Of a DNA stretch of 64,000 bases, positions 1-19,129 are shown one piece after another. Both the position numbers and the translations under genes were made by a program. The number at the start of each line of letters is the position of its first letter. The stretch's first letter is position 1. Source of the stretch: an uncultured Chloroflexia bacterium (lineage in GTDB: Bacteria; Chloroflexota; Anaerolineae; Anaerolineales; Villigracilaceae); assembly GCA_963760245.1 (NCBI GenBank), contig CAVXCH010000004.1:20241-84240 (forward strand). The letters run 5' to 3'. Below the pieces are notes generated by a model. That model saw only the letters and a list, made by a program, of their open reading frames with translations. It was not told the DNA's origin and did no database searches.

Positions 1-390
1 GCGAATGAGGTAGCAACCAACAACTAACCCGGTACGCCCTATTCCACCGACGCAATGGAGATAAACCTTGCGACTTTCCGAGAGAGCCGCATCAATGGCA
101 TCCAATGCGGCTACCATCATTTGGGGGGAGGGTACACTAAAATCCGGAAAAGAAAAACGCAGATGCCGGACTTCCAGTTCAAAATAGGTGGCTTCATTTT
201 TCAGAATGGATGTATACGGGGGGCGCTCATTTTCGATTGTCAGGTCTATGAAAGTGTCGAAACCGGCATTAAGGAAGGCGGAGAGACGCTCGTGGGTTAC
301 AGCCTTATTGTTACTACGGACCGGATATTCTCCCGCCAGAAACTGTCCCGGGAACACCCAGTAGGATTCGGGGATGGGCTTATCGATCAT
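1..390 (-). CDS. Dual-specificity / tyrosine protein phosphatase (partial, C-terminus beyond window edge)
   Basis: Not in the ORF track because it runs off the edge. My minus-strand translation from the ATG at 390 reads MIDKPIPESYWVFPGQFLAGEYP...SRKVYLHCVGGIGRTGLVVGCYLIR with no stops. It contains the Cys-X5-Arg(S/T) PTP signature HCVGGIGRTG. The ATG overlaps the upstream stop (ATGA at 387-390). Confidence 0.75.
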   Translation of the reverse strand, partial: MIDKPIPESYWVFPGQFLAGEYPVRSNNKAVTHERLSAFLNAGFDTFIDLTIENERPPYTSILKNEATYFELEVRHLRFSFPDFSVPSPQMMVAALDAIDAALSESRKVYLHCVGGIGRTGLVVGCYLIR

Positions 391-1463: not shown

Positions 1464-1910
1464 CTATTTGCCCATCATCTCCTGGACTATTTCCACTGCG
1501 TCTCCAACAAAATGAGGGCAGAGTGTTTTGAACACCTCTTTATCGACTGCCTGTTTCCGACCTGCATCGGTGCTGATATCAAAACCCAACAGTTCCCGGC
1601 AAAGGATGGAGCCATGCACGGACTCAAAACGACGTAAGAACTCCTGCCCAAGCCGGTAGGCATCCTCCTTTCCTGACGGAGTATCCGCTCCCATTGCCAG
1701 GCCGAGGGCCATCAACCCCCCCGACACTGCTCCGCATACCTGACCGCGGCGTGCAACACCGCCGCCAAAAGGTGAGGCTATTTTAAGCATGCTATTCTCA
1801 TCCATACCCAATTGAGACGCAAAGGTCGCTAATACCGACTGGGCACAATTGAAATTCCGTTTGAATAAAGAAACGGCAATTTCAGAAGGATCGAATTTAG
1901 AAGGTTCCAT
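1464..1910 (-). CDS. C_GCAxxG_C_C family redox-type protein
   Basis: Motifs NCAQSVL and QVCGAVSGG..ALG are typical of the family. I chose the ATG at 1910 (MEPSKFDP...) because the longer ORF overlaps the prs 3' end. Confidence 0.65.
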   Translation of the reverse strand: MEPSKFDPSEIAVSLFKRNFNCAQSVLATFASQLGMDENSMLKIASPFGGGVARRGQVCGAVSGGLMALGLAMGADTPSGKEDAYRLGQEFLRRFESVHGSILCRELLGFDISTDAGRKQAVDKEVFKTLCPHFVGDAVEIVQEMMGK

Positions 1911-3100: not shown

Positions 3101-4495
3101 CTAATGATAAATTTTCTCCCAAGGATCCCTCAGGAAATTCCCCAGGATCTTATCAGCTTCGCCCTGGGTGGGAAGCACATCGCCATCCGGTTCGACATAC
3201 AACCAGGCTTTGCCCGCGCCGGAGGGTACTTCGTCCTCGATGGTCTCGTGCGCCACAGGGTTCTCAGCGGAATAGGGAACGGGCAGGTCCCAGCGCAGGG
3301 TGAGACCGAGGCTGGCGGCTTTATTGTGCAAAACATGGAGGGCTTCGTGAAGAGAAGCCTCGGAAGCGCCGAGCGAGAGACTCTTGACCTCCAGTTTCGC
3401 CAGTTTTTCCAGAATTTCCCCGGCTTTGTTCACATTCTGCGGGGTAACCGTCAAGTGGACGGTGGTGTATAAATCTTCGGGCATGACCGTTTCCAACCCC
3501 TTCCAGGAGTCTGTGTTCTCAGGATCAAGAATAAAAAGTAAATGATCGAGACCGGTTTGCAGGAGGGTGTTCAGGTATTCTTTATCAGCCAGTTTCAACC
3601 CGTCGGAGAGCAAGCCGGCAACCTGCCCAACCTTCTCGGCGTGGGCAATCAGTGCCGGCAGGTCTTCGCGCAGGGTGGGCTCACCTCCGGTGAAAGTGAT
3701 GTGGGGGATGCCAACCGCCCAGGCCTTATCCATAATGGTTTCCCATTCCTGGGTAGTGAGTTCACGGTCTACGCGCTTGGTGGGAGCAAGCGAGGCGTCT
3801 GAACCAGCGGGCAGTCGATAGGTGAGCGCACAATCCAGACGCAAGGGCGCAGTCAAGTCGTGGGAATGAGGTGCGATGCGTTCAAAGTCGAGGAAGGTGG
3901 TCGGGTCCAGATCGGGGGTATGGATGAGTGTCTGGACGCGGTCACGGAAATCGGTGTAATCCATCAGCGCTTCCGCCTGGCTAATGCGGTAACGCTTGGA
4001 GATATGCCTGGCAGTTTCATCAGGCGAAGTGCCTTTTATCATGTGATAGGCAAATTCTGAGGCTGTGGCGTTCAGATGCAAAACCGTGGCGGCGTTAACG
4101 ATGAAGATGCCGGAACCGTCCTTCAGGAGGCGCAGATGCAAGCGATACGGAGGTTCATCCGGACCGGACTGGAAGGTGTGGGTTTCGGCGGGCAAAGGCT
4201 GATGGCGACCAGGTTTTTCAGCAAGGATCCAGAGGAGGATGAATCCCACCAGCAAAAGAAGCGCCTGGATGAAAATGCTGTATTTATACAGGAACCCACG
4301 GTGAATGAAAAAATAAAAGTAAATGGCAACCAGGAGGAAGACGATCCCGATAATTCGTACGATTACCCCTTTTGCATTATAGTTGCCTACTTTTAGTCTG
4401 CCTGCGATAAGGAGGAAAAGGCCCAGGAGGGGCATAATTACAAGAAAAACATACCGGGAGAGCAGATCCAAAGTGTTCAGCACTGTTTGGGACAT
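3101..4495 (-). CDS. Membrane-anchored radical-SAM/SPASM-like pseudoenzyme with RRE (PqqD-like) domain; Fe-S cysteines lost
   Basis: 464 aa with strong RBS AAGGAGG. Three N-terminal TM helices, then a PqqD-like segment (YRLHLRLLKDGSGIFIVNAATVLHLNATASEF..). The rSAM core keeps FTGGEPTL, but the CX3CX2C position reads YRLPAGSDASLA. The SPASM-equivalent region (AWLYVEPDGDVLPTQGEADKILGNF) has no Cys. Clear paralogue of 5197..6617. Confidence 0.8.
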   Translation of the reverse strand: MSQTVLNTLDLLSRYVFLVIMPLLGLFLLIAGRLKVGNYNAKGVIVRIIGIVFLLVAIYFYFFIHRGFLYKYSIFIQALLLLVGFILLWILAEKPGRHQPLPAETHTFQSGPDEPPYRLHLRLLKDGSGIFIVNAATVLHLNATASEFAYHMIKGTSPDETARHISKRYRISQAEALMDYTDFRDRVQTLIHTPDLDPTTFLDFERIAPHSHDLTAPLRLDCALTYRLPAGSDASLAPTKRVDRELTTQEWETIMDKAWAVGIPHITFTGGEPTLREDLPALIAHAEKVGQVAGLLSDGLKLADKEYLNTLLQTGLDHLLFILDPENTDSWKGLETVMPEDLYTTVHLTVTPQNVNKAGEILEKLAKLEVKSLSLGASEASLHEALHVLHNKAASLGLTLRWDLPVPYSAENPVAHETIEDEVPSGAGKAWLYVEPDGDVLPTQGEADKILGNFLRDPWEKIYH

Positions 4496-4510
4496 CGCAG
4501 CCTCCTTAAT

Positions 4511-4855
4511 TCATTCACGAATGAAGTGCGGTATTTCAAAAGGAATTTCAAAAGAAAACTCAATATAGCCGGCGTAGCGGCCGTCCTTGAACCAGGGGGA
4601 TTGATAAATGAATTTCTTGATACCATTCTTTTCGATGGTATAAGCATTAGCCTTTTGCTCATCCATCAGGCGTTCCAGTTTGCCGCGAGCGGGGTCGGGG
4701 TGGCAGTCGAGCATGTTCTTGCCAATCAAGGCGAGCCCGCCATCCTTAGCCATGGATTTGGCGGCCTTGTCGTTCATTTCGAGGATAATGCCGTCCGGGT
4801 CACTCACGGTGATTGCGGCAGGGAATTCCTTGATCCAGGCGTTTTCTTTGCTCAT
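4511..4855 (-). CDS. Small PAS-like protein (PAS_10-like, conserved DCHPDP motif), paralogue A
   Basis: 114 aa, RBS AAGGAG. Pattern ..ITVSDPDGIILEMNDKAA..LIGKNMLDCHPDPA..YTIEKNG..QSPW fits a single PAS fold. About 45% identical by eye to the next gene. Confidence 0.7.
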   Translation of the reverse strand: MSKENAWIKEFPAAITVSDPDGIILEMNDKAAKSMAKDGGLALIGKNMLDCHPDPARGKLERLMDEQKANAYTIEKNGIKKFIYQSPWFKDGRYAGYIEFSFEIPFEIPHFIRE

Positions 4856-4858
4856 GTT

Positions 4859-5200
4859 CTACTCCTTTTTGAAATGCGGAACATTTTCCGGAACAATAAA
4901 CGATATTTCCACGTACCCGGAATACAGGCCTTCCAGGTACCAGGGCGATTGGAAAAAGAAGCGTTTCTCGCCGTTCTCTGTGTTGAAATAGCAGTTGGTG
5001 GATTGGTCGTCCAACATACCCCCCAACTTGGTAAAGGCCGGGTCAGGATGGCAGTCGAGCACATTTGCGCCAAGGAGACCTTTTCCTCCGTCACCAGCGA
5101 AGAGCGCTTCGGCGTGGTCGTTCAATTCGAGGATGATCCCGCTGGAATCACAGACCATGATCTCGGCCGGAACCCCTTTCACCCAAAGTCCGTTGCTCAT
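4859..5200 (-). CDS. Small PAS-like protein, paralogue B
   Basis: Start chosen at MSNGLWVKG (ATG 5200), which forms an ATGA overlap with the upstream rSAM stop (5197-5200). It shares LDCHPDPA, QSPW and PHF motifs with paralogue A. Confidence 0.7.
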   Translation of the reverse strand: MSNGLWVKGVPAEIMVCDSSGIILELNDHAEALFAGDGGKGLLGANVLDCHPDPAFTKLGGMLDDQSTNCYFNTENGEKRFFFQSPWYLEGLYSGYVEISFIVPENVPHFKKE

Positions 5201-6617
5201 GCGACGCTCCCCTGCGCCACGTTTTTTTCGAATTGCAACGGGCAGCCGCCACCGCACTCGGCAAGCACAGCACAGCCGTTGCATTTTGCCGGCAGGGACT
5301 GGCGTTCGCGCAGCCTGACAGCCAGGTCGTGGTTCCAGATGGAATCCCAGTCATCAGCCAACAGGTTGCCGAGTTGATGATAATAAGACTGACAGGGCAG
5401 CACCCCACCATCGGGTTCGATGCACATGTTATAGAGGGCAGCTGTGCAACCCTTTACGCCCAGGTCCAGCGCCATCGGGTCGAAATCACAATACTGGGTG
5501 GGCGTATACCAGATAAGACGCTGGCCGCGGGCGAAGGTCTTTTGACGAGCCACTTCCAGAAGCGGGGACAAATCAGACTCTGCCAGCCCCGTCCCCACCA
5601 CGGAGCCTCGGCCCGAGTGGATCAGTGCGTTAAGTCCCACCGTGGGGACGCCAGTATCAGCCAGGAAATCCAGGGTGGCCGGGATGGTGTGGGCATTCGT
5701 GCGCAGCATGGTGGTATTGGTCATCACATAAAGTGGACTGGCGAGAGCGTTCTTCAACCCTTTGATCGTCTGCGGGAAAGCGCCCCTGGTGCGTACCATG
5801 GCATCATGGACCTCAGCATCGTTCGACTCAACCGTGATCTGAACGTGATCCAGCCCTGCAGCAACCAGCTTCTCAACATAACGCGGGTCCGAAAGGCGCC
5901 GGGCATTGGTGTTCAGCCCGGTGATCTGACCATTCTTCTCGGCGTGGGCCACGAGATCAGGCAGGTCATCGCGCAGGGTGGGCTCGCCGCCGGTGAAAAT
6001 AATGTGCGGAATGCCCAGTTCCCAGGCCTTGTCGAGGACGCGTTGCCAGCCTCCGGTGGAGAGTTCAGCTTTCGCATTTGAAGCTTCGGCCCGAGTAAAT
6101 TTCCCCCCTGCTCTAATGCCGTGGGGGAGGAATGTTGGACGTTATAACAGTGGGCGCAGTCGTTATTGCAGCGATACGTAAGCGCCAGGTCGAGACGGTA
6201 GGGGGCAGTAGGGCGGGCTGAGAATGGCATGACCGTTTCGAGCCCAAGCTCGTGGATCGGACAGGCACCGTCGGGACGGACGAGTTCTTCGAGCTGGCTG
6301 CGGACGGCTGCCACGTCCGCGCGCGCCTGGGCAGCATTTACGTGATATTTCCGCCGGATCAGGCGTACGGCTTCCCGTTCGGAGATGTCCTCCAGGGAAA
6401 AGTACGCCATCAAGGCGGCAGTGGGGTTAAGGTGCAGGATGCGATTGGCATTGACGATCAAAGTACCGTGACCATCAGGGTCCAGACGAAGGTGGATACG
6501 ACTTTTTTCATCCTTATCGACGCGATTATAGTGATACAACCCGGATTGAGGCTCCCCTACGGGGGCCTTTTTTCGGCTGAGGTCTTTTGACTGAACAACC
6601 TTTTCAACATCCGACAC
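5197..6617 (-). pseudogene. RRE-radical SAM/SPASM peptide/protein maturase; reading frame broken once as assembled (possible sequencing indel)
   Basis: ORF 5913..6617 carries the PqqD-like domain and YRCNNDCAHCYN (CX3CX2C), then goes out of frame. ORF 5197..5952, extended upstream, reads ELSTGGWQRVLDKAWELGIPHIIFTGGEPTL...; its C-terminus has CX2CX5CX3C (CNGCAVLAECGGGC). The two frames overlap over 6062-6140, which contains a C6 run at 6103-6108. GTG start without an obvious SD. Confidence 0.85.
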
Positions 6618-6650
6618 CTATAAATAAGAATGGAATCTTCCGATCAAGAT

Positions 6651-8346
6651 CTACCGTCCGCCACCGGCGCAGGCGCAGGCACAACCGGCACAGGCACAGG
6701 CACAGGCGCAGAATGACCGCCGCCACCCGAGAAACCACCGGTGTGCCCGCTTTTTACGACCGGGACCGGGTTGGTGCGGTTGGTGACGCCGGAAGTGAAT
6801 GACTTTACGTCACCGAGGACCTTGCTGGAGAAGCCCTGGACGCCGGTGACAACCGAGGCGGCAAATGCCGAACCCGGCAGGCTGGCTGAAGACCGTCCTC
6901 CGGAAGACGGCATGGAGACGGATGAGCCTGCGCCGGTCGAGACCGGATCGGTAACCTGGGTCATAGCGACCCCACCACATCGGGATGAAGATCGGCCCGG
7001 TAAAGACGTCGGCGGGTGCGCTCGTCGTAATTCTTGTCGAGCATGGTCCATTCGAGGGATTCGTCGTACATCTGGCTCTTGACCTCGGGCGTACCGGCCG
7101 CTTCGATCTGCTGCCAGGCGCGTTCCATGATGCTCTGGTAGTAGGCGATGGTTTCCTTGCGGCTGAAGCCTTTCATCTTGTCGGAAACACTGTTGACCAG
7201 CTTGACGGTCATCTCCTGCAGCCCCTTGCGGCGGGCGACCAGGTCGTCGACGGCAAACGCCGCCAGGAAATCCTTTTCGTAATCCTGCAGCCCATCGGGC
7301 AGAGGAGATGCCACCTGGAGTTTGAGCGGGTCGCGGGTGACAACCGTGGCGGCGTTCTTCTTGACCACGCCAAACAGGATCATGGTCATGACCTTGTCGA
7401 GCGGCTGTTCCATCAGGATGCCCGCTTCGACCGCGGTCAGGCCGCGCTTGATGCCGTGTCCTTCGATCTGGATCTTGGGCGGCAGGTACGCCAGTTTGCG
7501 TTTGTTTCCATTGATCGCGGACAAGATCGGCGCGCCGACGAACAGCAGGATAAAAAAGCCAAAACAGCAGACGCCGCTCAGATTACTCATGATGCCGTTG
7601 ATAAATCCACCGAGGTCCAAACCCAAGGCTGAGGGTGTCGCCCCGATAGCACCCGCCGGGACATAGGAATTCGGGAAGGACATGCCAAAGATATATTCGG
7701 TCGAGCCATCGGCGTTCGGGCAAGACCAGGTAAACCTCACCCTGCCCTGTCCATCCAGGTCCGCCTGGGGATTGGCATCGCAAGGCCAGCCTCCCGTTGC
7801 CGGATAATAAATGGATTCGGCAGGCTGCACGCCCGGAGGCAGATGGAAAACGACTGTCAGGGTCTCGCTGCCATGTGCGGTTGAGAAGTAGGCGGGGGCG
7901 AATTCACCGCTGGCATAGGTGGTGGTCTTTCCGGAATCGGTGCTGGGGTATAGTACGCCGGTGATGCTGCCAACAGCTACATGGACGCTTCCGGTCTGCC
8001 CCGGCTGAATGGCATCCGATCCCATGACTACTGAAAATCCGGAACCATTACCCTGATAATCCGATTGGGAGACCGTAAGGCTGTGTCCATTGGCGTCGGC
8101 CGATGCGGTGTTCATGTCGAAATTCCCATTGGGCATGCCCACATCCACATAGTCGATCACATGACCGCCGGAGTCATTGGCGAAGGTGAAAACGTAATCG
8201 AGCGCCATGGTCCCGTCGCTATTCCAGTAAACGTTGACGACTTCCTTCGTCAAATTAAAGGAATAAGACTGGGCAGCCACGCTGGAGACCATCGTGAAGA
8301 CCATAAATATCAGCACGATAGAAGCAAGCAGGCGGAGTTTTTTCAT
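6651..8346 (-). pseudogene. DUF2207-like membrane protein with Gly/Ser-rich C-terminal region; about 3 frame breaks in the last 400 nt as assembled
   Basis: Start at MKKLRLLASIV.. (signal peptide, RBS AGGAGGAAGGG). Beta-rich ectodomain, TM helix, then GLTAVEAGILMEQPLDKV.. In the tail, frame A ends at 6961; frame B reads FTGPIFIPMWWGRYDPGY with better GC3; frame C (ORF 6644..7051) reads SSGGRSSASLPGSAFAASVVTGVQGFS...GGFSGGGGHS; a further frame gives the Cys-Ala tail. Alternatively, ORF 6644..6964 (MTQVT.., ATGA overlap with the 6961 stop) is a separate 106-aa gene. Confidence 0.6.
6660..6711 (-). repeat. Coding hexanucleotide microsatellite (TGY-GCC)n
   Basis: Minus strand reads tgcgcctgtgcctgtgcctgtgccggttgtgcctgcgcctgcgccggtggcggacggtag. 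This gives APVPVPVPVVPAPAPVADGRS in the ORF-track frame, or CACACACAGCACACAGGGR-stop (stop at 6651-6653) in the +1 frame. Confidence 0.9.
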
Positions 8347-8395
8347 CCCTTCCTCCTTTACGAAATTTATTGCGGGATTCCAAACAATTGCACAG

Positions 8396-8791
8396 CTACC
8401 ACTTGGGTTCTTCGGTGAGTTGATAAACCGTATTGCAGTACGGACAGGTGACGACAGGCGCACCGTTCACCATTTTGATGTTGTCGGTAGTCAACGCGCC
8501 GCCGCAGGAACGGCACTTCATTTGCTCAATCTTGGTGTCGCCCGGCAGGTCCACCTTGTAAGTAACGTTTTGAGCGGTGTCCGTCTTCGTCTTGCGAGCC
8601 GCCAAAACAATCATGATAATTCCAGCCACCAGGGCGACTGCTCCAAGCAGCATCCCAACGGTGCCGATCCCGGACACGCCCTGGGCACCGCCGGCTGCGC
8701 CCAACAAGATAAAGCCCCCGACACAAATTCCCGAGGCAGCCAACAAGAGCAGGATGACTGCACCGATATACAACCAGGTTCCAGGTTTCAT
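8396..8791 (-). CDS. Membrane protein with C-terminal zinc ribbon
   Basis: Start at MKPGTW (GGAGG 6 nt upstream). Two TM helices, then CRSCGG...CPYCN (CxxC x2). Confidence 0.6.
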   Translation of the reverse strand: MKPGTWLYIGAVILLLLAASGICVGGFILLGAAGGAQGVSGIGTVGMLLGAVALVAGIIMIVLAARKTKTDTAQNVTYKVDLPGDTKIEQMKCRSCGGALTTDNIKMVNGAPVVTCPYCNTVYQLTEEPKW

Positions 8792-8910
8792 GAAATTACC
8801 TCCGTGGTACTCCATGGGATATACGTTTAAACCAGGTCAAGTGTAGCACGTCTTAACCCGTGAGACAATTGACGAATTTCCCATTTTGTATAAATGTCCC
8901 GCCGGAGTTG

Positions 8911-9282
8911 TCAACCCGAACCGGAAGGACGTTTCCCATATTCGATCAACCCGTGGACGGTGTCAATGGGGAGAACGACCAGGATGCCGTTCCCGGGCTC
9001 ATCCAAGTCGCCGACAATTTCTTCGGTCACCTTGAGGATACGCCCCACCAAATCCTCCTGCACGACCGTAAAAATTGTACGGCTCAAATCCTCGCTTTGA
9101 ACAAAAAAATCACTCAAGGAAGGCATCAAGGGCAGGTCATCGCGCAGAGCCATGGACTGGTTGATGCGACCCATGCCGGTGCTGGACAAGACCGTAGCAC
9201 CGCTTACACCGGCTTCCTTCCAAGCCTTCAGGAGATCCAACAATCGCATGGGATCATTCAGGACGAAAAGAATCATCTTCAT
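8911..9282 (-). CDS. PII-like small regulatory protein
   Basis: 123 aa from MKMILFVLNDP.. with LLKAWKEAGVSGATVLSSTGMGR, which resembles the PII/GlnB-like fold signature. It starts 1 nt after the antiporter stop. Confidence 0.5.
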   Translation of the reverse strand: MKMILFVLNDPMRLLDLLKAWKEAGVSGATVLSSTGMGRINQSMALRDDLPLMPSLSDFFVQSEDLSRTIFTVVQEDLVGRILKVTEEIVGDLDEPGNGILVVLPIDTVHGLIEYGKRPSGSG

Positions 9283-9283
9283 A

Positions 9284-10507
9284 TCAGCTCTCCTCTCCCC
9301 TTTTCGCCGGAACCATTGCCTTTGGTTTGAGACGTTCAAAAGCAAAACGCAGCAGCGGCGGCGTGACGAGGGTGGTAAGCAGCACTGCGGCGACAATGGC
9401 AGAGTATGCCCCGCTTTCTAACAAGCCAGCCTTGCTGCCTGCCGCCGCAACGATCAGGGTGACCTCCCCGCGCGCCACCATCCCGGCACCCAACTGGAAT
9501 GATTCGTGACCGGGTAACCCGCCCAACCTTGCGCCTGCTGCGGCACCAAATATTTTTCCGGCAATTGCTGCCAATGCGACTACAAGAATCAGCCAGACAG
9601 CGTTTATATCCAGGGTGTGCAAATCGATTGAAAGGCCAACATTGATAAAGAAAATGGGAACAAAAAGCCCATATGCCAGAGAGGTAATCCCCTGTTCGAT
9701 TTGACCTTTTTCGGGAGTGCGGGCAAACATCAACCCAGCCAGGAAAGCACCGATCAAGGCAGCCATCTGGCCCACCAGCTCTGAGGCCAGGCCGTAAAGG
9801 AGCATGATCACGATGGCAAAAGCAAGCACGCCCTGGCTGATGGACAAGTGCCCCACCCAGCGTACCAGGGACGGAAGAACCCACAGCCCAAAGGCCGTGG
9901 CGGCGACAAGAAAAAGAGCCATGCGACCTGCAAGCAAAACCAGACCCCAGAAACCAGCAGCGCCGGTGGTGATTGCCAGGAAGACCGAGAAGGCCAGGAT
10001 GGAGAGGATATCGTCCACCACGGCAGCGCCGAGCAAGCTCAACCCCACCCGGCTGCGCAGCACGCTCATTTCCATCAACGTGCGCGCCGATATGCTTACG
10101 CTGGTGGCACCCAACGCCAGCCCCAGCAGGAGAGCAGCAGAGCCGGTGAGACCAAAAAGCCGTCCCCCACCCCAGCCCAGCCCGATGGACAGGAGCAGCC
10201 CTCCAACGCTTGCCAGGAGGGATACTCTGCGGTGGCTGGCCAGCTCGCCCAGGTGAAGTTCGAGGCCCGCGATGAACATCAACATCAAAACCCCCAGTTC
10301 GCTGAGGTCAGAAATGGTGACCCCCAGTGTAGTGCTGCTAATGAAAGGCAGACCAAGGATGTTAATCAGAGACGGGCCAAGCACCACCCCGATGAGAAGT
10401 TCCCCCAATACCGAGGGCTGCCCCAGGCGGGTGCTGATGTATCCAGCCGCTTTGGCAGCCAACAAGATGACGACCAGTTCAAAGGCGAGTTGCAGAAAGG
10501 GGGTCAT
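9284..10507 (-). CDS. Cation:proton antiporter (CPA2 / Kef-type Na+/H+ exchanger family)
   Basis: 407 aa with about 12 TM helices. N-terminal LAAKAAGYISTRLGQPSVLGELLIGVVLGPS is typical of Na_H_Exchanger proteins. No fused KTN/RCK domain. Confidence 0.8.
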   Translation of the reverse strand: MTPFLQLAFELVVILLAAKAAGYISTRLGQPSVLGELLIGVVLGPSLINILGLPFISSTTLGVTISDLSELGVLMLMFIAGLELHLGELASHRRVSLLASVGGLLLSIGLGWGGGRLFGLTGSAALLLGLALGATSVSISARTLMEMSVLRSRVGLSLLGAAVVDDILSILAFSVFLAITTGAAGFWGLVLLAGRMALFLVAATAFGLWVLPSLVRWVGHLSISQGVLAFAIVIMLLYGLASELVGQMAALIGAFLAGLMFARTPEKGQIEQGITSLAYGLFVPIFFINVGLSIDLHTLDINAVWLILVVALAAIAGKIFGAAAGARLGGLPGHESFQLGAGMVARGEVTLIVAAAGSKAGLLESGAYSAIVAAVLLTTLVTPPLLRFAFERLKPKAMVPAKRGEES

Positions 10508-13751: not shown

Positions 13752-15555
13752 TTACAGATGCAGGTCTTCCCTGGGATGGCCGGTTTCGGGGTCCCAACCG
13801 AACTCGGCATAAGCACCAGCCAACAGGGTAGGCATATCCGGCACATAACCAGCTGCGCCGCCCTCCTTGAGCGGTTTGAGCAGCAGGTCAGGCAGCCGGT
13901 CGTTGGCTCTGGTCAGCCCGAGCTTGAAGTTCAACAGGCGTTTGATGTTGACGATGCGCTTGCCCAACGTCATCAAGTCTTCTGCTTCCAGGTCCCAGCC
14001 GGTGGCCGCGTTTATTGCTGCCAGGAGCGGTTGAACGCCCGGATTTTCGAACTGGCACAGGATGAGGGAATTATACAGGTTGCGCCAGGCCTGCAAACGT
14101 GCTGCTGTGCGGCCCTTTTCGATCGTGTTCTCATGCCGGTCGCCTGGCTCCAGACCGACTTCTCCAAGATTGCTTTGACCCAGGTCGAGGGTGAACATAT
14201 CGCCCTGCATGTGGCAGGCACCGCGGGGAGAAAGGGCGTAGGTGACAGCCATGCCCAGGTAAGCGCGTGGATCGTGCATGGGCACTTCCAATCGGTTGAC
14301 GGTGGCTGAAAGCTCCGGCACACCTGCACGCTCAGCCAGGGCGGCGTTGCCTTCGGCCAGCACAGCGCCAAAACCCTCCCGGCGGGCAGTCAGCTCGATC
14401 AGGCGGAAGACCATCTCGGGATCGCCATAACGAATTTCCAGACCACCTGTATCCGCCGAGGTGAGCAGGCCGCGGTCGAACAGTTCGCAGGCCAGACCGA
14501 TGGTCACGCCCATGCTGATAATGTCCATGCCGTAGAGATTGCACAGGTGCCCGGCGTGGATCACCGCTTCCAGGTCGAAGATCATCAACAGGGAACCCAA
14601 CGCCCCTACCGTCTCGTACTCGGGTCCATCCACCTTGGGATCTTTATAGGTAGGGGATTGTGTCTCCCGCCCGCAGGCGATCACGCACTTGTGGCAGGCT
14701 GTATTGCGCGTGAGAAACTTTTCAGCCAGGTCAACCCCGGAGAGATCGTCAGCCGGCGCGTATTCGCCCAACTGGAAGTAACGGATGGGCAGGTCGCCCA
14801 ACATATGGCTCAGGTTAACATAGCCAGCAGTGCCGTAGGCGCGGTAGGATTGGGCGGGAAAGTCATCTTTATAGAACGCCAGGATCTGGTTGGTGATGGC
14901 TTTGTATTCTTCAGGGGCATAGAGTGGAACCTTGCCTGTGCCACGCACCGCGATTGCCTTCAGGTTCTTGGAGCCCATCACTGCGCCCAGGCCGGTGCGG
15001 GCGGCAAAACGGCCGTGGTCGTTGGCGATGCCGGCCAGCTTGACCATGTTTTCGCCTGCCAGCCCGATGCAGGCCACGCGCACTTTTGGGTCACCCAGGG
15101 CCTCGCGAAGGCGGGTCTGTGTGGCGTAGATGTCGTTGCCCCACAGGTCGCCGGCTGCTATGCAGCGCAGCCTGCCCTTCGATAATCGACAACCAGACCG
15201 GCTGCTCAGCCTTGCCGGTGATCAATACTCCGTCATAACCGGCGTAGCGCAGCTCGGGGCCAAAGAAACCGCCGCTGTTGGCTTCACCCCAGATGCCCGT
15301 TAGCGGTGAGCGGGCGCACACGCTGTAACGCCCGGCTGAGGTCATCGAGGTGCCCACCAGGGGACCGGTCAGGAAGAACAGCGGGTTCTCCGGGCCAAGC
15401 GGATCTGTGCGGTCGTCTAGCAGGTCGTAAAGATAGCGCGCTGCCAGCCCACTGCCACCCACATAGGTGCGGGCGTAGTCTTCGTTGAGCGCTTCGTCCC
15501 ACAGCCGGCCGTGGCTGAGGTCGACGCGCAGGATCTTGCCCAGGTATCCGTTCAT
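13752..15555 (-). pseudogene. Aldehyde:ferredoxin oxidoreductase (tungstopterin AOR family); one frame break as assembled
   Basis: N-terminal ORF (15091..15573) reads MNGYLGKILRVDLSHG..GGSGLAARYLYD..SPLTGIWGE. C-terminal ORF (13752..15083) contains the 4Fe-4S ligand motif CHKCVIACGR. In the second frame the sequence continues AAGDLWGNDIYATQTRLREALGDPKVRVACIG. The break is near 15153-15165. ATGA overlap with the SCP2 gene. Confidence 0.85.
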
Positions 15556-15983
15556 GCGCCGCTTACGATCCAAAATCGCGTATCGATCTGCCCAGCGATC
15601 TTTGACCAGCTCGTAGGTGGCCTTGGGGTGCGCTGAACCTGCGCCATGCTGCCCACCAGTTTGAGCTTGCCGGAGAACATACCCTGGATGGGATCCAGCC
15701 TGCCTTCAAGCACCCTGCGCCAGGTGTTGAACGGCGCCGAGGTGGTGAAAAGGGCCTTCTGCTCATCCAGGCTTTTCAATTGCCTGGCATCGAATGCTTT
15801 GCCATGCTGGAGGTTTATATACAGATAAGCAGTATCCGCATAATCAGCATCCGGCAGGATGATAAAGATGTTATCGCCCTCCCAGGAGGCAGCAGCCTGG
15901 GCGTAAGATTCGCTGGCATTCAATTTTTTGCTGAGTTCCTTGATCCATTCATCGGAGGGAAATTTGATCGCCATGTTTGCCAT
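15552..15983 (-). CDS. SCP2 sterol/lipid-binding domain protein
   Basis: ..FNTWRRVLEGRLDPIQGMFSGKLKLVGSMAQV.. is a typical SCP2 C-terminal pattern. Residues encoded by about 15610-15640 look locally out of frame (see findings). Confidence 0.7.
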   Translation of the reverse strand: MANMAIKFPSDEWIKELSKKLNASESYAQAAASWEGDNIFIILPDADYADTAYLYINLQHGKAFDARQLKSLDEQKALFTTSAPFNTWRRVLEGRLDPIQGMFSGKLKLVGSMAQVQRTPRPPTSWSKIAGQIDTRFWIVSGA

Positions 15984-17469: not shown

Positions 17470-19060
17470 TCATGATTTATTCAAGGCATGAAAGACCGGC
17501 CGGATCTTGTCCTTGCTGGCCATGAATTGTGCAAACATGCGGTCGTAGACAGCCTGGTTCTTCGGGTCCGGCTCGAAGATCCGGTCGAACTTGATCATAT
17601 TGGGAATATCTTCCAGCTTGACCAGTCCCAGGCGGTTGAAGGCCAGCAACCCCATGCCGATCACGTTATTGTTGCGCGGGTCGGCCTGCCGGTGCATGGG
17701 AAGCCCGACCACATCCGCCATGATCTGCGACCAGACGTCTGAAAGCGCTCCGCCGCCGGTCAGCCGCCAGTATTGGAACGGCCTGCCGATCAGCTTTTCA
17801 GCCGGGCCGCGCAGCCAGCGCCAGTTCATGGCAAGGCCTTCGAAGACTGCCCGGGTGAGATGGGCGCGGCTGGTCCTGGGAGAGAGGTTCAGGAAGCCGC
17901 CGCGCATATACGGGTCTTCCCCGGGAGCAAGAATGCCATTGAACCAGGGCAGGAAGATCACGCCCTCGCTGCCAGGCGGAACCCGGGCGGCAACCTGGCT
18001 GGCGCGTTCGTACATGTCACCGGGGATCTTGCCCGGTCTCAAAGCCATCCTGTGCGTAGACCAGGTTCTTCAGGTAGGATTCCAGAACATTGCCATTGTT
18101 TGCCAGATCACCCCAGAACAGGTAACGCCCCTTGATCCCGCTGGGCATGGTTGCCATGGTGTTGAACAGATCGGTCTTTTTAAAGGAGACATGAGAGGCC
18201 AGGTGGCCCGAAGTGCCCAGCACCGCAACCGCCTCACCATCGGCAATGGCGCCGGCACCGACGGCGGAGGTGCTGTTGTCGTTGACGCCGCAGACCACCA
18301 CGGTGTCAGGTGAAAGCCCCAGTTCGCTGGCGATGGAGGGTGTGATGGTGCCCAGGATGCCGTCGATGGGCAGCAGGTCAGGCAGTTTTTCACGGTCGAT
18401 GCCCCCCATCTTGAGCAACCAGGGATCGTATTCCTGTGCATCCAGCCGGCGGTTATCCATCATCATCGACATCCAGACCGTGTTCTGCGTGGCCGCGAAC
18501 TTGCCCGTCAGGCGCATATTGATGTAATCCATCGGCTCAAAGAACTTGTAGGTCCGCCGGTAGATCTCCGGACGTTCATTCTTGATAAAGAGCATGTGCC
18601 CCAACGAATCAATCCCTTTGAGGGAAGGAACCAGACCGTTGATTCCGATATACTTGAGCAAGGTGCTCAATTTGTACCCCTGGATGTTGGGGAATCCTTT
18701 GACGATCTCGCGGTTGTATGGCGCGCCACGCCCATCCATCCAGGAAATTACGTTCATCAGCGGCTCGCCGTTCTCGTCCACCGGCAGGGTGACCGACCAC
18801 TGACTGGTGACGGCGATGGCAATGATTGCAGCCTGGGCCACGCGGGAGGTTTGAATCACTTTTTTCACACAGGCGGTAATGGCTGCCCACCACTCAGCGG
18901 GGTCGTGTTCCGCGCCGCCGTCAGGTGGAAAGAAAAGTTGTACTGGAGCGGAAGTGCTGCAAGTCACCCGTCCCTGCTGATCGACGAGCCCGACCTTTGG
19001 TCCGCTGGTACCCAGGTCGATGACCAGGACATATTTGCTCGATGGTTGATCTTCGGACAT
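17470..19060 (-). pseudogene. FGGY-family carbohydrate/polyol kinase; one frame break as assembled
   Basis: N-terminal VLVIDLGTSGPKVGLVD. C-terminal fragment RLTGGGALSDVWSQIMADV. The break lies at GCCCGG 18031-18036: KNLVYAQDGFETG / KIPGDMYERAS read through if one G is removed. RBS AAGGAG. Confidence 0.85.
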
Positions 19061-19129
19061 ATTTATGGCTCCTTAATTTTATTTCGGGGAGAGATTAAAT
19101 AATGTCAATAATGCAATTATATCATCAAT

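Follow-up and report, generated by a model that had tools for sequence, protein, structure and literature searches.

Does the repetitive DNA at the 3′ end of a membrane-protein gene encode the Pro/Val/Ala-rich peptide of its assembled reading frame or a Cys-Ala repeat one base away, and what might such a repeat do? The question is raised by contig CAVXCH010000004.1 of an uncultured Chloroflexia bacterium, in which we analyzed a stretch of 64,000 nucleotides (hereafter, the window; positions refer to its forward strand). The gene lies on the minus strand, just upstream of a gene for a radical S-adenosylmethionine (SAM) enzyme with a SPASM domain, and a first-pass annotation of the sequence had proposed that a Cys-Ala tail is hidden at its 3′ end. 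Comparison with homologs identifies this tail as the true C terminus of the membrane protein encoded at 8346–6651 and the Pro/Val/Ala reading as an artifact. Taking all evidence together, we judge it likely that the tail is a genuine C terminus hidden by indel errors, that it belongs to a conserved gene module and that it is most probably a substrate of the neighboring enzyme.

Homologs conserve the hidden Cys-Ala reading

Direct translation of the minus strand from 6710 to 6654 gives C-A-C-A-C-A-C-A-G-C-A-C-A-C-A-G-G-G-R (CACACACAGCACACAGGGR), closed by a TAG stop at 6653–6651, which matches the first-pass reading to the base. The tail is laid out as two blocks, CxCxCxC and CxCxC, which are joined by Ala-Gly and followed by AGGGR. 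Three-frame translation of 6600–7130 yields APVPVPVPVVPAPAPVADGRS over the same DNA in the frame of the open reading frame (ORF) track and LRLCLCLCRLCLRLRRWR in the third frame; read from further upstream, the ORF-track frame runs into the tail DNA as ...GGFSGGGGHSAPVPVPVPVVPAPAPVADGRS and then a stop, and the second frame as ...RLCLCLCRLCLRLRRWRTV.... The frame that holds the tail reads ...WFLGWRRSF-CACACACAGCACACAGGGR and then its stop across the assembled junction, where the minus strand is ...ggt cat tc/t gcg cct gtg.... This is the sole run of at least four Cys-X dipeptides in the six frames of the window, compared with 0.11 such runs per window in mononucleotide shuffles.

To place the indels that separate the tail from its gene, we used the intact ortholog at locus L003, which encodes protein P0001 and is 93% identical in nucleotides over the 500 nt aligned. 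At the junction, the window has CATTC-TGCGCC where L003 has CACTCTTGTGCC; the one T that is absent between 6711 and 6710 bears out the proposal that a single-base change near 6708–6714 would join the tail to the Gly-rich text upstream (..HTGGFSGGGGHS). Two further frame corrections that had been called for in the same gene end correspond to extra bases at 7009 and 6949. The insertion at 7009 pushes ..ERTRRRL into a frame that ends at a false stop (6961–6963), and the three indels together split the last 360 nt of the gene into three frames. Repairing these indels gives a window protein that shares 91% identity with P0001 and terminates in the exact consensus tail.

The homologs decide which of the two C termini is real. 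A search with the gene repaired by eye to 565 residues gave 4460 matches at E ≤ 1e-3. All but one of the 120 best (68–94% identical, 548–587 residues, mostly from Chloroflexota/Anaerolineales metagenome-assembled genomes (MAGs)) finish in CACACA(CA)GCACACAGGGR, and the odd one out, P0099, is a frameshifted entry. When all 50%-identity cluster representatives were searched exhaustively using P0001, 836 matched, and tails were judged in the best 150: the tail is kept in 90 of the 93 full-length representatives among them, down to ~31% identity, and 66 of the 150 have exactly the same 19-residue ending while overall identity drops to ~31%. Full-length homologs from Bathyarchaeia carry the tail or a near variant in 116 of 116 cases. 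Thus, the Cys-Ala version is the one conserved in both close (119/120) and distant (90/93) relatives, whereas the Pro/Val/Ala version is conserved in no homolog and is seen only in entries frameshifted in the tail. We noted seven public entries that are mistranslated through this region into Leu/Arg/Cys-rich or Pro/Val/Ala-rich peptides (P0099, P0155, P0239, P0250, P0253, P0257 and P0265).

Codon usage in the tail points the same way. Across 72 genome and metagenome loci, one identical 19-mer is encoded by 72 distinct DNA sequences whose differences are synonymous only, and each Cys, Ala, Gly and Arg codon varies among them; in both of the other frames, every locus yields a peptide of its own (72 different peptides per frame). 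Because 72 DNAs converge on one peptide in this frame and on none in the others, selection acts on the Cys-Ala reading. Relatives were also sought in one genome per species, which gave at least 436 loci that encode one; of these we studied the best 80. The tail is present in 76 of these 80 species-level loci, and only in L012 does it stand out of frame with a reading frame of 549–622 codons. In an alignment of 53 family members, the tail columns are invariant or nearly so: Cys positions never vary, whereas the X positions accept Ala, Val, His and Ser, and tails across the family hold seven to ten cysteines at strict C-X-C spacing. We define the family by full-length homology together with a C-terminal (C-X)3-4 / xx / (C-X)3 / GGG(R) tail, and the window protein has both.

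The tail ends a membrane protein and is predicted to be cytoplasmic

An AlphaFold2 model of P0001 built from the 53-sequence alignment (mean predicted local distance difference test score (pLDDT) of 84) consists of a signal peptide, a β-sandwich ectodomain (residues 30–225), a long transmembrane (TM) helix (245–285), a winged-helix-like unit and helical domain (305–447), a short conserved PxWW segment and two amphipathic helices (492–525) that cover the motif ..LPG.AFAA.VV.GVQ.F....G....FT.GVT..TNP.P... A Gly/Ser linker then leads into the disordered tail, with pLDDT values of 31–46 in the last four ten-residue blocks. Hydropathy places no TM segment past residue 278, and NSNKRK comes after the helix; in P0209, three TM helices occupy this position, with the same orientation. 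Because a single TM helix is followed by NSNKRK and by no later hydrophobic segment, we infer a type-I membrane protein in which everything after the helix, including the tail, would be cytoplasmic.

The family has few recognizable relatives. Foldseek matches are confined to the ectodomain, which resembles the N-domains of M1 aminopeptidases and ribophorin I/OST1, and a sequence search of the PDB gave no match to P0001 at E up to 1. In the scanned window ORFs and intact orthologs, the tail protein crosses the threshold of none of the Pfam or NCBIfam models, and even at E up to 10 it matches no family in either collection; P0001 likewise has no match to DUF2207 (PF09972 / PF20990) at that limit. 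TIGR04222 gives sub-threshold matches on the post-TM domain of 9 of the 53 members (best E = 4.8e-6; the cut-off of 43 bits is not reached) and none for the window protein or P0001; DUF2207_C matches 3 of the 53 weakly (best 1.2e-4) and DUF2207 one, all below threshold. As these matches are sub-threshold only, we regard the family as a remote relative of TIGR04222 and DUF2207 rather than a member of either. The first-pass mention of such tails on ‘membrane proteins of this type’ has some basis in these matches, which some of the members show.

Variants of the architecture also occur. Five proteins of 766–838 residues (P0121, P0122 and P0128–P0130) have an additional N-terminal region of ~230 residues, and P0137, P0139 and P0141 have long Ser-rich linkers ahead of the tail. 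Two loci contain a tandem pair of tail-protein genes, each with its own Cys-Ala tail (L081:10001–13464; L055:39–104 and 2207–2266).

The adjoining gene encodes a radical SAM/SPASM enzyme of an uncharacterized branch

The gene downstream of the tail was correctly described as a radical SAM neighbor, but the proposed gap of 33 nt is revised to 39 nt: its start is most likely the ATG at 6611 (MLKRLF..., as in L001 and L003) and not the GTG at 6617. The N-terminal fragment of the enzyme contains CNNDCAHC, the CX3CX2C motif of the radical SAM domain (PF04055, 37.3 bits against a cut-off of 29.5), and the SPASM domain is recognized by both PF13186 (38.5 bits against 21.5) and TIGR04085 (47 against 27), with a complete auxiliary-cluster motif, CX2CX5CX3C (CNGCAVLAECGGGC). 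The CX3CX2C motif is present in 70 of 71 enzyme orthologs. It is absent from all 64 orthologs of a second, paralogous gene further downstream, whose product also lacks the SPASM cysteines and is predicted to be catalytically dead.

The nearest solved structures are those of PqqE (6c8v, E = 1e-17) and SkfB (6efn, E = 1.5e-14), along with SuiB, all of them peptide-modifying enzymes with a recognition element (RRE) for peptides made by the ribosome and modified after translation (RiPPs). The SkfB alignment begins at residue 62 and so takes in part of the N-terminal domain, and the orthologs from Bathyarchaeia have precomputed ‘PqqD (weak)’ matches. Scores against curated families are low: 119–135 bits for PqqE (TIGR02109, cut-off 381), 63.7 for AlbA (NF012164, 850), 65.7 for SkfB (TIGR04403, 300), 77.8 for StsB (NF045574, 625) and 37.8–67.8 for the ACGX-repeat maturase (TIGR04340, 400). 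The CXXX-repeat maturase model is absent among the 25 best NCBIfam matches listed for the enzyme, and the contexts examined contain no pqq genes. Because the enzyme falls far below all curated equivalog cut-offs, we place it in an uncharacterized branch of what is probably the RRE-dependent SPASM class.

A three-gene module spans Bacteria and Archaea

On the minus strand of the window, the genes run in the order zinc-ribbon protein, tail protein, enzyme, two PAS-like proteins and dead paralog (Table 1). Linkage was counted in those of the 80 best loci, 67 in number, that have the tail and a downstream stretch of 1.5 kb or more; the 80 are all labeled Chloroflexota/Anaerolineae, save one contig labeled Syntrophothermus. 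An enzyme ortholog lies on the same strand, a median of ~50 nt downstream of the tail gene, in 64 of these 67 Chloroflexota genomes, and the dead paralog lies downstream in 64 of the 67 loci. The zinc-ribbon gene stands directly upstream of the tail gene in nearly all of them.

The arrangement extends beyond Chloroflexota. P0219, which is 31% identical to P0001, and 370 relatives are archaeal, and NCBI names two of these Candidatus Bathyarchaeia. These proteins end in tails of three Cys blocks with ten cysteines in all (3+4+3), as in CVCACHACACACACVSCACACAGGGAR. Three Bathyarchaeia loci with entirely different flanks (L084, L091 and L092) contain the intact triad of a 115-residue TM and zinc-ribbon protein, the tail protein and the PqqD–radical SAM–SPASM enzyme. 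In a third lineage (L087), with multiheme cytochromes nearby, the order changes to enzyme, SPASM-only paralog without CX3CX2C and tail protein. Between the three lineages, the enzymes share 39–43% identity from end to end, the putative N-terminal RRE included, and the zinc-ribbon proteins, a homolog of which lies upstream of the tail gene in Bathyarchaeia and in L089, are 30–38% identical. The available contexts of P0145, P0254 and P0235 are very short, although the truncated gene after P0254 is likewise an enzyme ortholog. The module also occurs in L033, a MAG labeled with the name of a cultured species, Anaerolinea thermophila.

Thus, the co-occurrence of Cys-Ala tails with radical SAM/SPASM genes, on which the first-pass idea of a maturase system depended, holds in 64 of 67 Chloroflexota loci, three Bathyarchaeia contexts and a rearranged third lineage. 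These sequence comparisons show that a three-gene module (TM and zinc-ribbon protein, tail protein and radical SAM/SPASM enzyme with a PqqD-like domain) is common to Anaerolineae, Bathyarchaeia and at least one further lineage. Because the linkage survives the boundary between domains of life, unrelated flanks and a change in gene order, we take the module to be a functional one.

Two features of the archaeal loci stand apart: the Bathyarchaeia tails (L084–L086, L091 and L092; P0271–P0389) have a His in the first linker and endings that include GGGAR, GGGAH and GGGGR, and no dead paralog adjoins the enzyme.

The tail is a probable substrate of the enzyme

The neighboring radical SAM/SPASM enzyme most likely acts on the cytoplasmic tail. 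In the mechanism that we propose, the conserved helical segment 20–60 residues upstream of the tail would serve as a built-in leader bound by the enzyme RRE, and the radical SAM/SPASM domains would then modify the tail cysteines. The membrane-anchored dead paralog, which retains an RRE-like domain, may hold or present the substrate. By analogy with the enzyme class, our best guess is that thioether cross-links form from the tail cysteines, whether inside the tail or between its two Cys blocks folded as a hairpin. Because Cys positions are invariant and X positions tolerant, the (CxCxCxC)-xx-(CxCxC) block structure, with its extra archaeal block, suggests β-strands connected by two-residue turns, with the thiols on one face. 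The product would be a rigid, sulfur-rich structure that works as a functional group fixed in place, whether for redox reactions, for metal binding or as a structural element, and not as a diffusible antibiotic; we expect this because the invariance of the tail resembles that of cofactor precursors and not of hypervariable RiPP cores. It is possible, if rather doubtful, that the enzyme, with the dead paralog and the zinc-ribbon partner, converts the tail into a protein-bound structure of a kind not seen before. Candidates would be a ladder of Cys-to-Ala thioethers, in effect lanthionine made by radical chemistry, or a multi-sulfur metal- or redox-active cofactor on the cytoplasmic end of a receptor-like membrane protein. 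RiPP chemistry of this protein-tethered, cofactor-like type would then be common to Bacteria (Anaerolineae) and Archaea (Bathyarchaeia).

Several points weigh against this assignment. The RRE match is borderline in the window copy (PF05402, 23.3 bits against a cut-off of 23.4; NF033530, E = 5.4e-6), and known RRE-dependent enzymes act on short peptides, not on 560-residue membrane proteins. The thioether idea derives from the enzyme class only, and by sequence a chemistry like that of PqqE or MftC is just as near. The seven cysteines are closely spaced and could, with no covalent modification, bind metal or Fe–S clusters. In 3 of the 67 Chloroflexota loci (L018, L049 and L076), only the dead paralog stands beside the tail gene, and L018 has no active enzyme within 10 kb on either side of it. 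Finally, the window itself has five indels in 925 nt (6084–7009), a dense cluster that could reflect a very recent, real inactivation in this organism.

The main alternative, which we consider unlikely, accepts the tail as real but gives it another role: on a membrane protein that is a sensor or a transporter accessory, its C-X-C repeat would bind metal or Fe–S clusters much as a metallothionein does, and the enzyme would act on something else, such as the zinc-ribbon protein or a small molecule. The number and strict spacing of the cysteines (seven to ten), X positions that tolerate Val, His and Ser while the cysteines stay fixed, the disorder of the tail in the AlphaFold model and the three loci without an active enzyme nearby would all suit such a role. 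It accounts less well for the putative peptide-binding RRE/PqqD domain of the enzyme, for a gene pair that stays together in two domains of life and through a change in gene order, and for the continued linkage of a dead paralog that has kept its RRE-like domain. Metal binding and modification can, moreover, coexist in the same tail.

The indels are best explained as assembly errors

The radical SAM gene is broken twice, at ~6569, where a G is missing from a G-run, and at ~6084–6105, as judged from tblastn frames; the missing G near 6569 also conceals the true ATG start at 6611. Outside the cluster, where frameshifts were judged by Pfam domain splitting in selected ORF pairs only, an aldehyde:ferredoxin oxidoreductase gene (AFOR; 13755–15705, minus strand) is split into one ORF with AFOR_N 1–132 and another with AFOR_N 121–199 and AFOR_C, and an FGGY sugar kinase gene (17473–19072, minus strand) is split into an FGGY_N ORF and an FGGY_C ORF. 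We also compared the ratio of non-synonymous to synonymous substitution rates (dN/dS) against L003 in four long or in-register segments. It is 0.13 ahead of the first indel, 0.12 from the second to the third and 0.10 beyond the last one in the radical SAM gene, and the tail differs from that of L003 by five synonymous and no non-synonymous changes. Because other genes in the window are also split and dN/dS is equal on either side of the indels, consensus errors of the assembly account for them better than decay does. Many of the related loci are MAGs labeled MFD with Flye-style contig names, which suggests long-read assembly, and in one MFD-type MAG, L012, several of the cluster genes are broken. 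The 6949 insertion creates GATC (CCGATCC) and the 7009 insertion sits in GACGTC, neither in a homopolymer; if the reads are from nanopore sequencing, miscalls associated with methylation motifs could be the source of both.

Real decay, in which the frameshifts exist in the organism and the tail-protein and radical SAM genes are pseudogenes, is very unlikely in our estimate. The clustering of the five 1-nt indels, the position of two of them outside homopolymers and the intactness of the adjoining cluster genes (3101–5284 and 7010–10507) are what such decay would leave. Yet the unrelated AFOR and FGGY kinase genes are likewise frameshifted, dN/dS downstream of the indels (0.10–0.12) is close to that upstream (0.13) with only synonymous changes in the tail, and frameshifts recur in L012 and in the tails of several database entries.

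Still less probable, to the point of being negligible, is a programmed frameshift or phase-variation site that toggles the tail on and off. Repetitive hexanucleotide DNA at the 3′ end of the gene, and several database entries that are out of frame there, could hint at one; the indel, however, lies just ahead of the repeat and not within it, two more fall 240 and 300 nt upstream in non-repetitive sequence, L012 is the only one of the 76 species-level loci with the tail that is out of frame, and synonymous variation makes the DNA repeat imperfect. That the assembled frame is correct, its Pro/Val/Ala-rich end real and the Cys-Ala reading a coincidence of a (TGYGCN)n DNA repeat has in its favor that the ORF caller gives this frame and that Tandem Repeats Finder (TRF) detects a period-6 array at 6662–6711, but the homolog endings and the 72-locus codon comparison refute it, with free third codon positions around an invariant peptide.

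Other genes of the neighborhood

The two PAS-like genes are accessory members of part of the Anaerolineae loci (Table 1). A protein of the C_GCAxxG_C_C family, with putative redox-active cysteines, is encoded a few genes past the dead paralog (window 1467–1835, minus strand; L001:16097–16471; L002:16372–16854), and 11 of the 37 related loci that have full flanks contain a homolog, a loose linkage that is possibly just synteny. A class-I SAM methyltransferase (L001:18561–19292; orthologs 44–74% identical) is encoded further downstream, on the same strand, in 31 of the 37 full-flank Anaerolineae loci and directly after the dead paralog in compact clusters. It lies outside this window and may belong to the system; L090, too, has a methyltransferase gene immediately behind its tail gene. 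The phosphatase gene that precedes the methyltransferase is cut by the window edge (1–384, minus strand). All three were set aside as cluster members, their linkage being looser or restricted to Anaerolineae.

Table 1. Features of the tail-protein locus and its neighbors in the window
Feature	Position	Strand	Basis and remarks
Complete tail-protein gene, ~565 residues, in three frames	6651..8346	-	tblastn of P0001; homologs; AlphaFold2; Foldseek; hydropathy
Cys-Ala tail, 19 codons	6654..6710	-	direct reading; identical peptide in 72 loci; alignment columns (near-)invariant
TAG stop closing the tail frame	6651..6653	-	direct reading; TAA, TAG or TGA here in orthologs
Extra base (+1), CGCCG[A]CGTC	7009..7009	-	L003 alignment; tblastn frame change
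Second extra base (+1), TACC[G]ATCC	6949..6949	-	L003 alignment; tblastn frames
Missing base (-1; TT to T) right before the first Cys codon, hiding the tail	6710..6711	-	L003 alignment
PqqD-like (RRE) / radical SAM / SPASM enzyme	5197..6611	-	Pfam, NCBIfam, tblastn; 39 nt past the tail stop; two 1-nt indels
Predicted catalytically dead enzyme paralog, 464 residues	3101..4495	-	three N-terminal TM helices, RRE-like domain, radical-SAM-like barrel
Small TM and zinc-ribbon membrane protein, ~131 residues	8396..8791	-	N-terminal TM helices; C-terminal CxxC...CxxC zinc ribbon ending LTEEPKW
Small PAS-like protein 1, paralog of protein 2	4859..5200	-	tblastn; accessory, in part of the Anaerolineae loci
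Small PAS-like protein 2	4511..4855	-	PF08448 PAS_4, 25.6 bits against 23.1; accessory

Implications and comparison with known systems

This locus illustrates that a strongly selected protein feature can be recovered where indel-prone assemblies conceal it. It also marks out a three-gene module, so far unnamed, whose members number in the hundreds to thousands in Anaerolineae and Bathyarchaeia, both of them abundant anaerobic lineages with few cultures. Proteins that share only ~50% of their residues overall have the same 19-residue tail, and it changes little down to ~31% identity, an invariance typical of cofactor precursors such as PqqA and MftA and not of antibiotic RiPPs. If the tail is modified, RiPP-type radical chemistry would reach the cytoplasmic tail of a large membrane protein, and an uncharacterized SPASM branch would gain a defined, testable substrate.

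In domain order (a putative RRE, then radical SAM and SPASM), the enzyme is like SkfB, AlbA, StsB, PqqE, MftC and SuiB; to the sactipeptide synthases and PqqE, it is related at the class level only, with scores far under their equivalog cut-offs. A radical SAM/SPASM enzyme is also known to form Cys thioether cross-links in a protein subunit of a larger assembly, and not in a secreted peptide, in the QhpC/QhpD pair; QhpC, unlike the tail protein, is a small soluble subunit, and the likeness is one of function.

Pairs of repeat peptides with radical SAM/SPASM enzymes were reportedly found through comparative genomics by Haft and Basu in 2011, among them the ACGX-repeat (TIGR04340/04341), CXXX-repeat and SCIFF/ranthipeptide systems. 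The module shares with these a Cys-rich, low-complexity target beside a dedicated radical SAM/SPASM enzyme. Its repeat unit, however, is C-X, with Cys at every second residue, and not A-C-G-X or C-X-X-X, and its target is the tail of a 560-residue membrane protein, invariant across phyla and domains, and not a short peptide. The resemblance to CXXX- and ACGX-repeat systems that the first-pass annotation pointed to is therefore one of analogous logic and not of membership, given the repeat unit and the score below the TIGR04340 cut-off; that to SCIFF systems is also one of logic only.

Among membrane proteins, DUF2207 proteins (PF09972 / PF20990) have a similar layout of signal peptide or anchor, β-sandwich ectodomain, TM segment, intracellular domain and Gly-rich C-terminal tail; to our knowledge, their tails are Gly-rich without a Cys-Ala repeat and are not linked to radical SAM genes.

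In the literature, the nearest parallel is a proposed pairing in which subsets of TIGR04222 membrane proteins, whose Ser/Gly-rich C-terminal tails contain Cys, serve as substrates for MNIO (DUF692) enzymes (PMC12452194). Both systems involve whole membrane proteins with an unstructured, Gly/Ser-rich, Cys-bearing C terminus linked to a RiPP-type maturase, so that the module parallels the proposed MNIO/TIGR04222 pairs with a different enzyme class. Here the partner is a radical SAM/SPASM enzyme, the cysteines form an invariant C-X-C repeat instead of being scattered, the tail is predicted to be cytoplasmic and not periplasmic, and the hosts are Anaerolineae and Bathyarchaeia instead of mostly Actinomycetota. 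No MNIO gene (DUF692 / MbnB_TglH_ChrH) appears in the gene tables of the seven loci with listed genes, and full-text literature searches returned no description of this tail or module, their matches being primer sequences or papers on other subjects. Radical SAM/SPASM maturases that have Cys-rich targets are already known in kind; what is new here is a target that forms the tail of a membrane protein.

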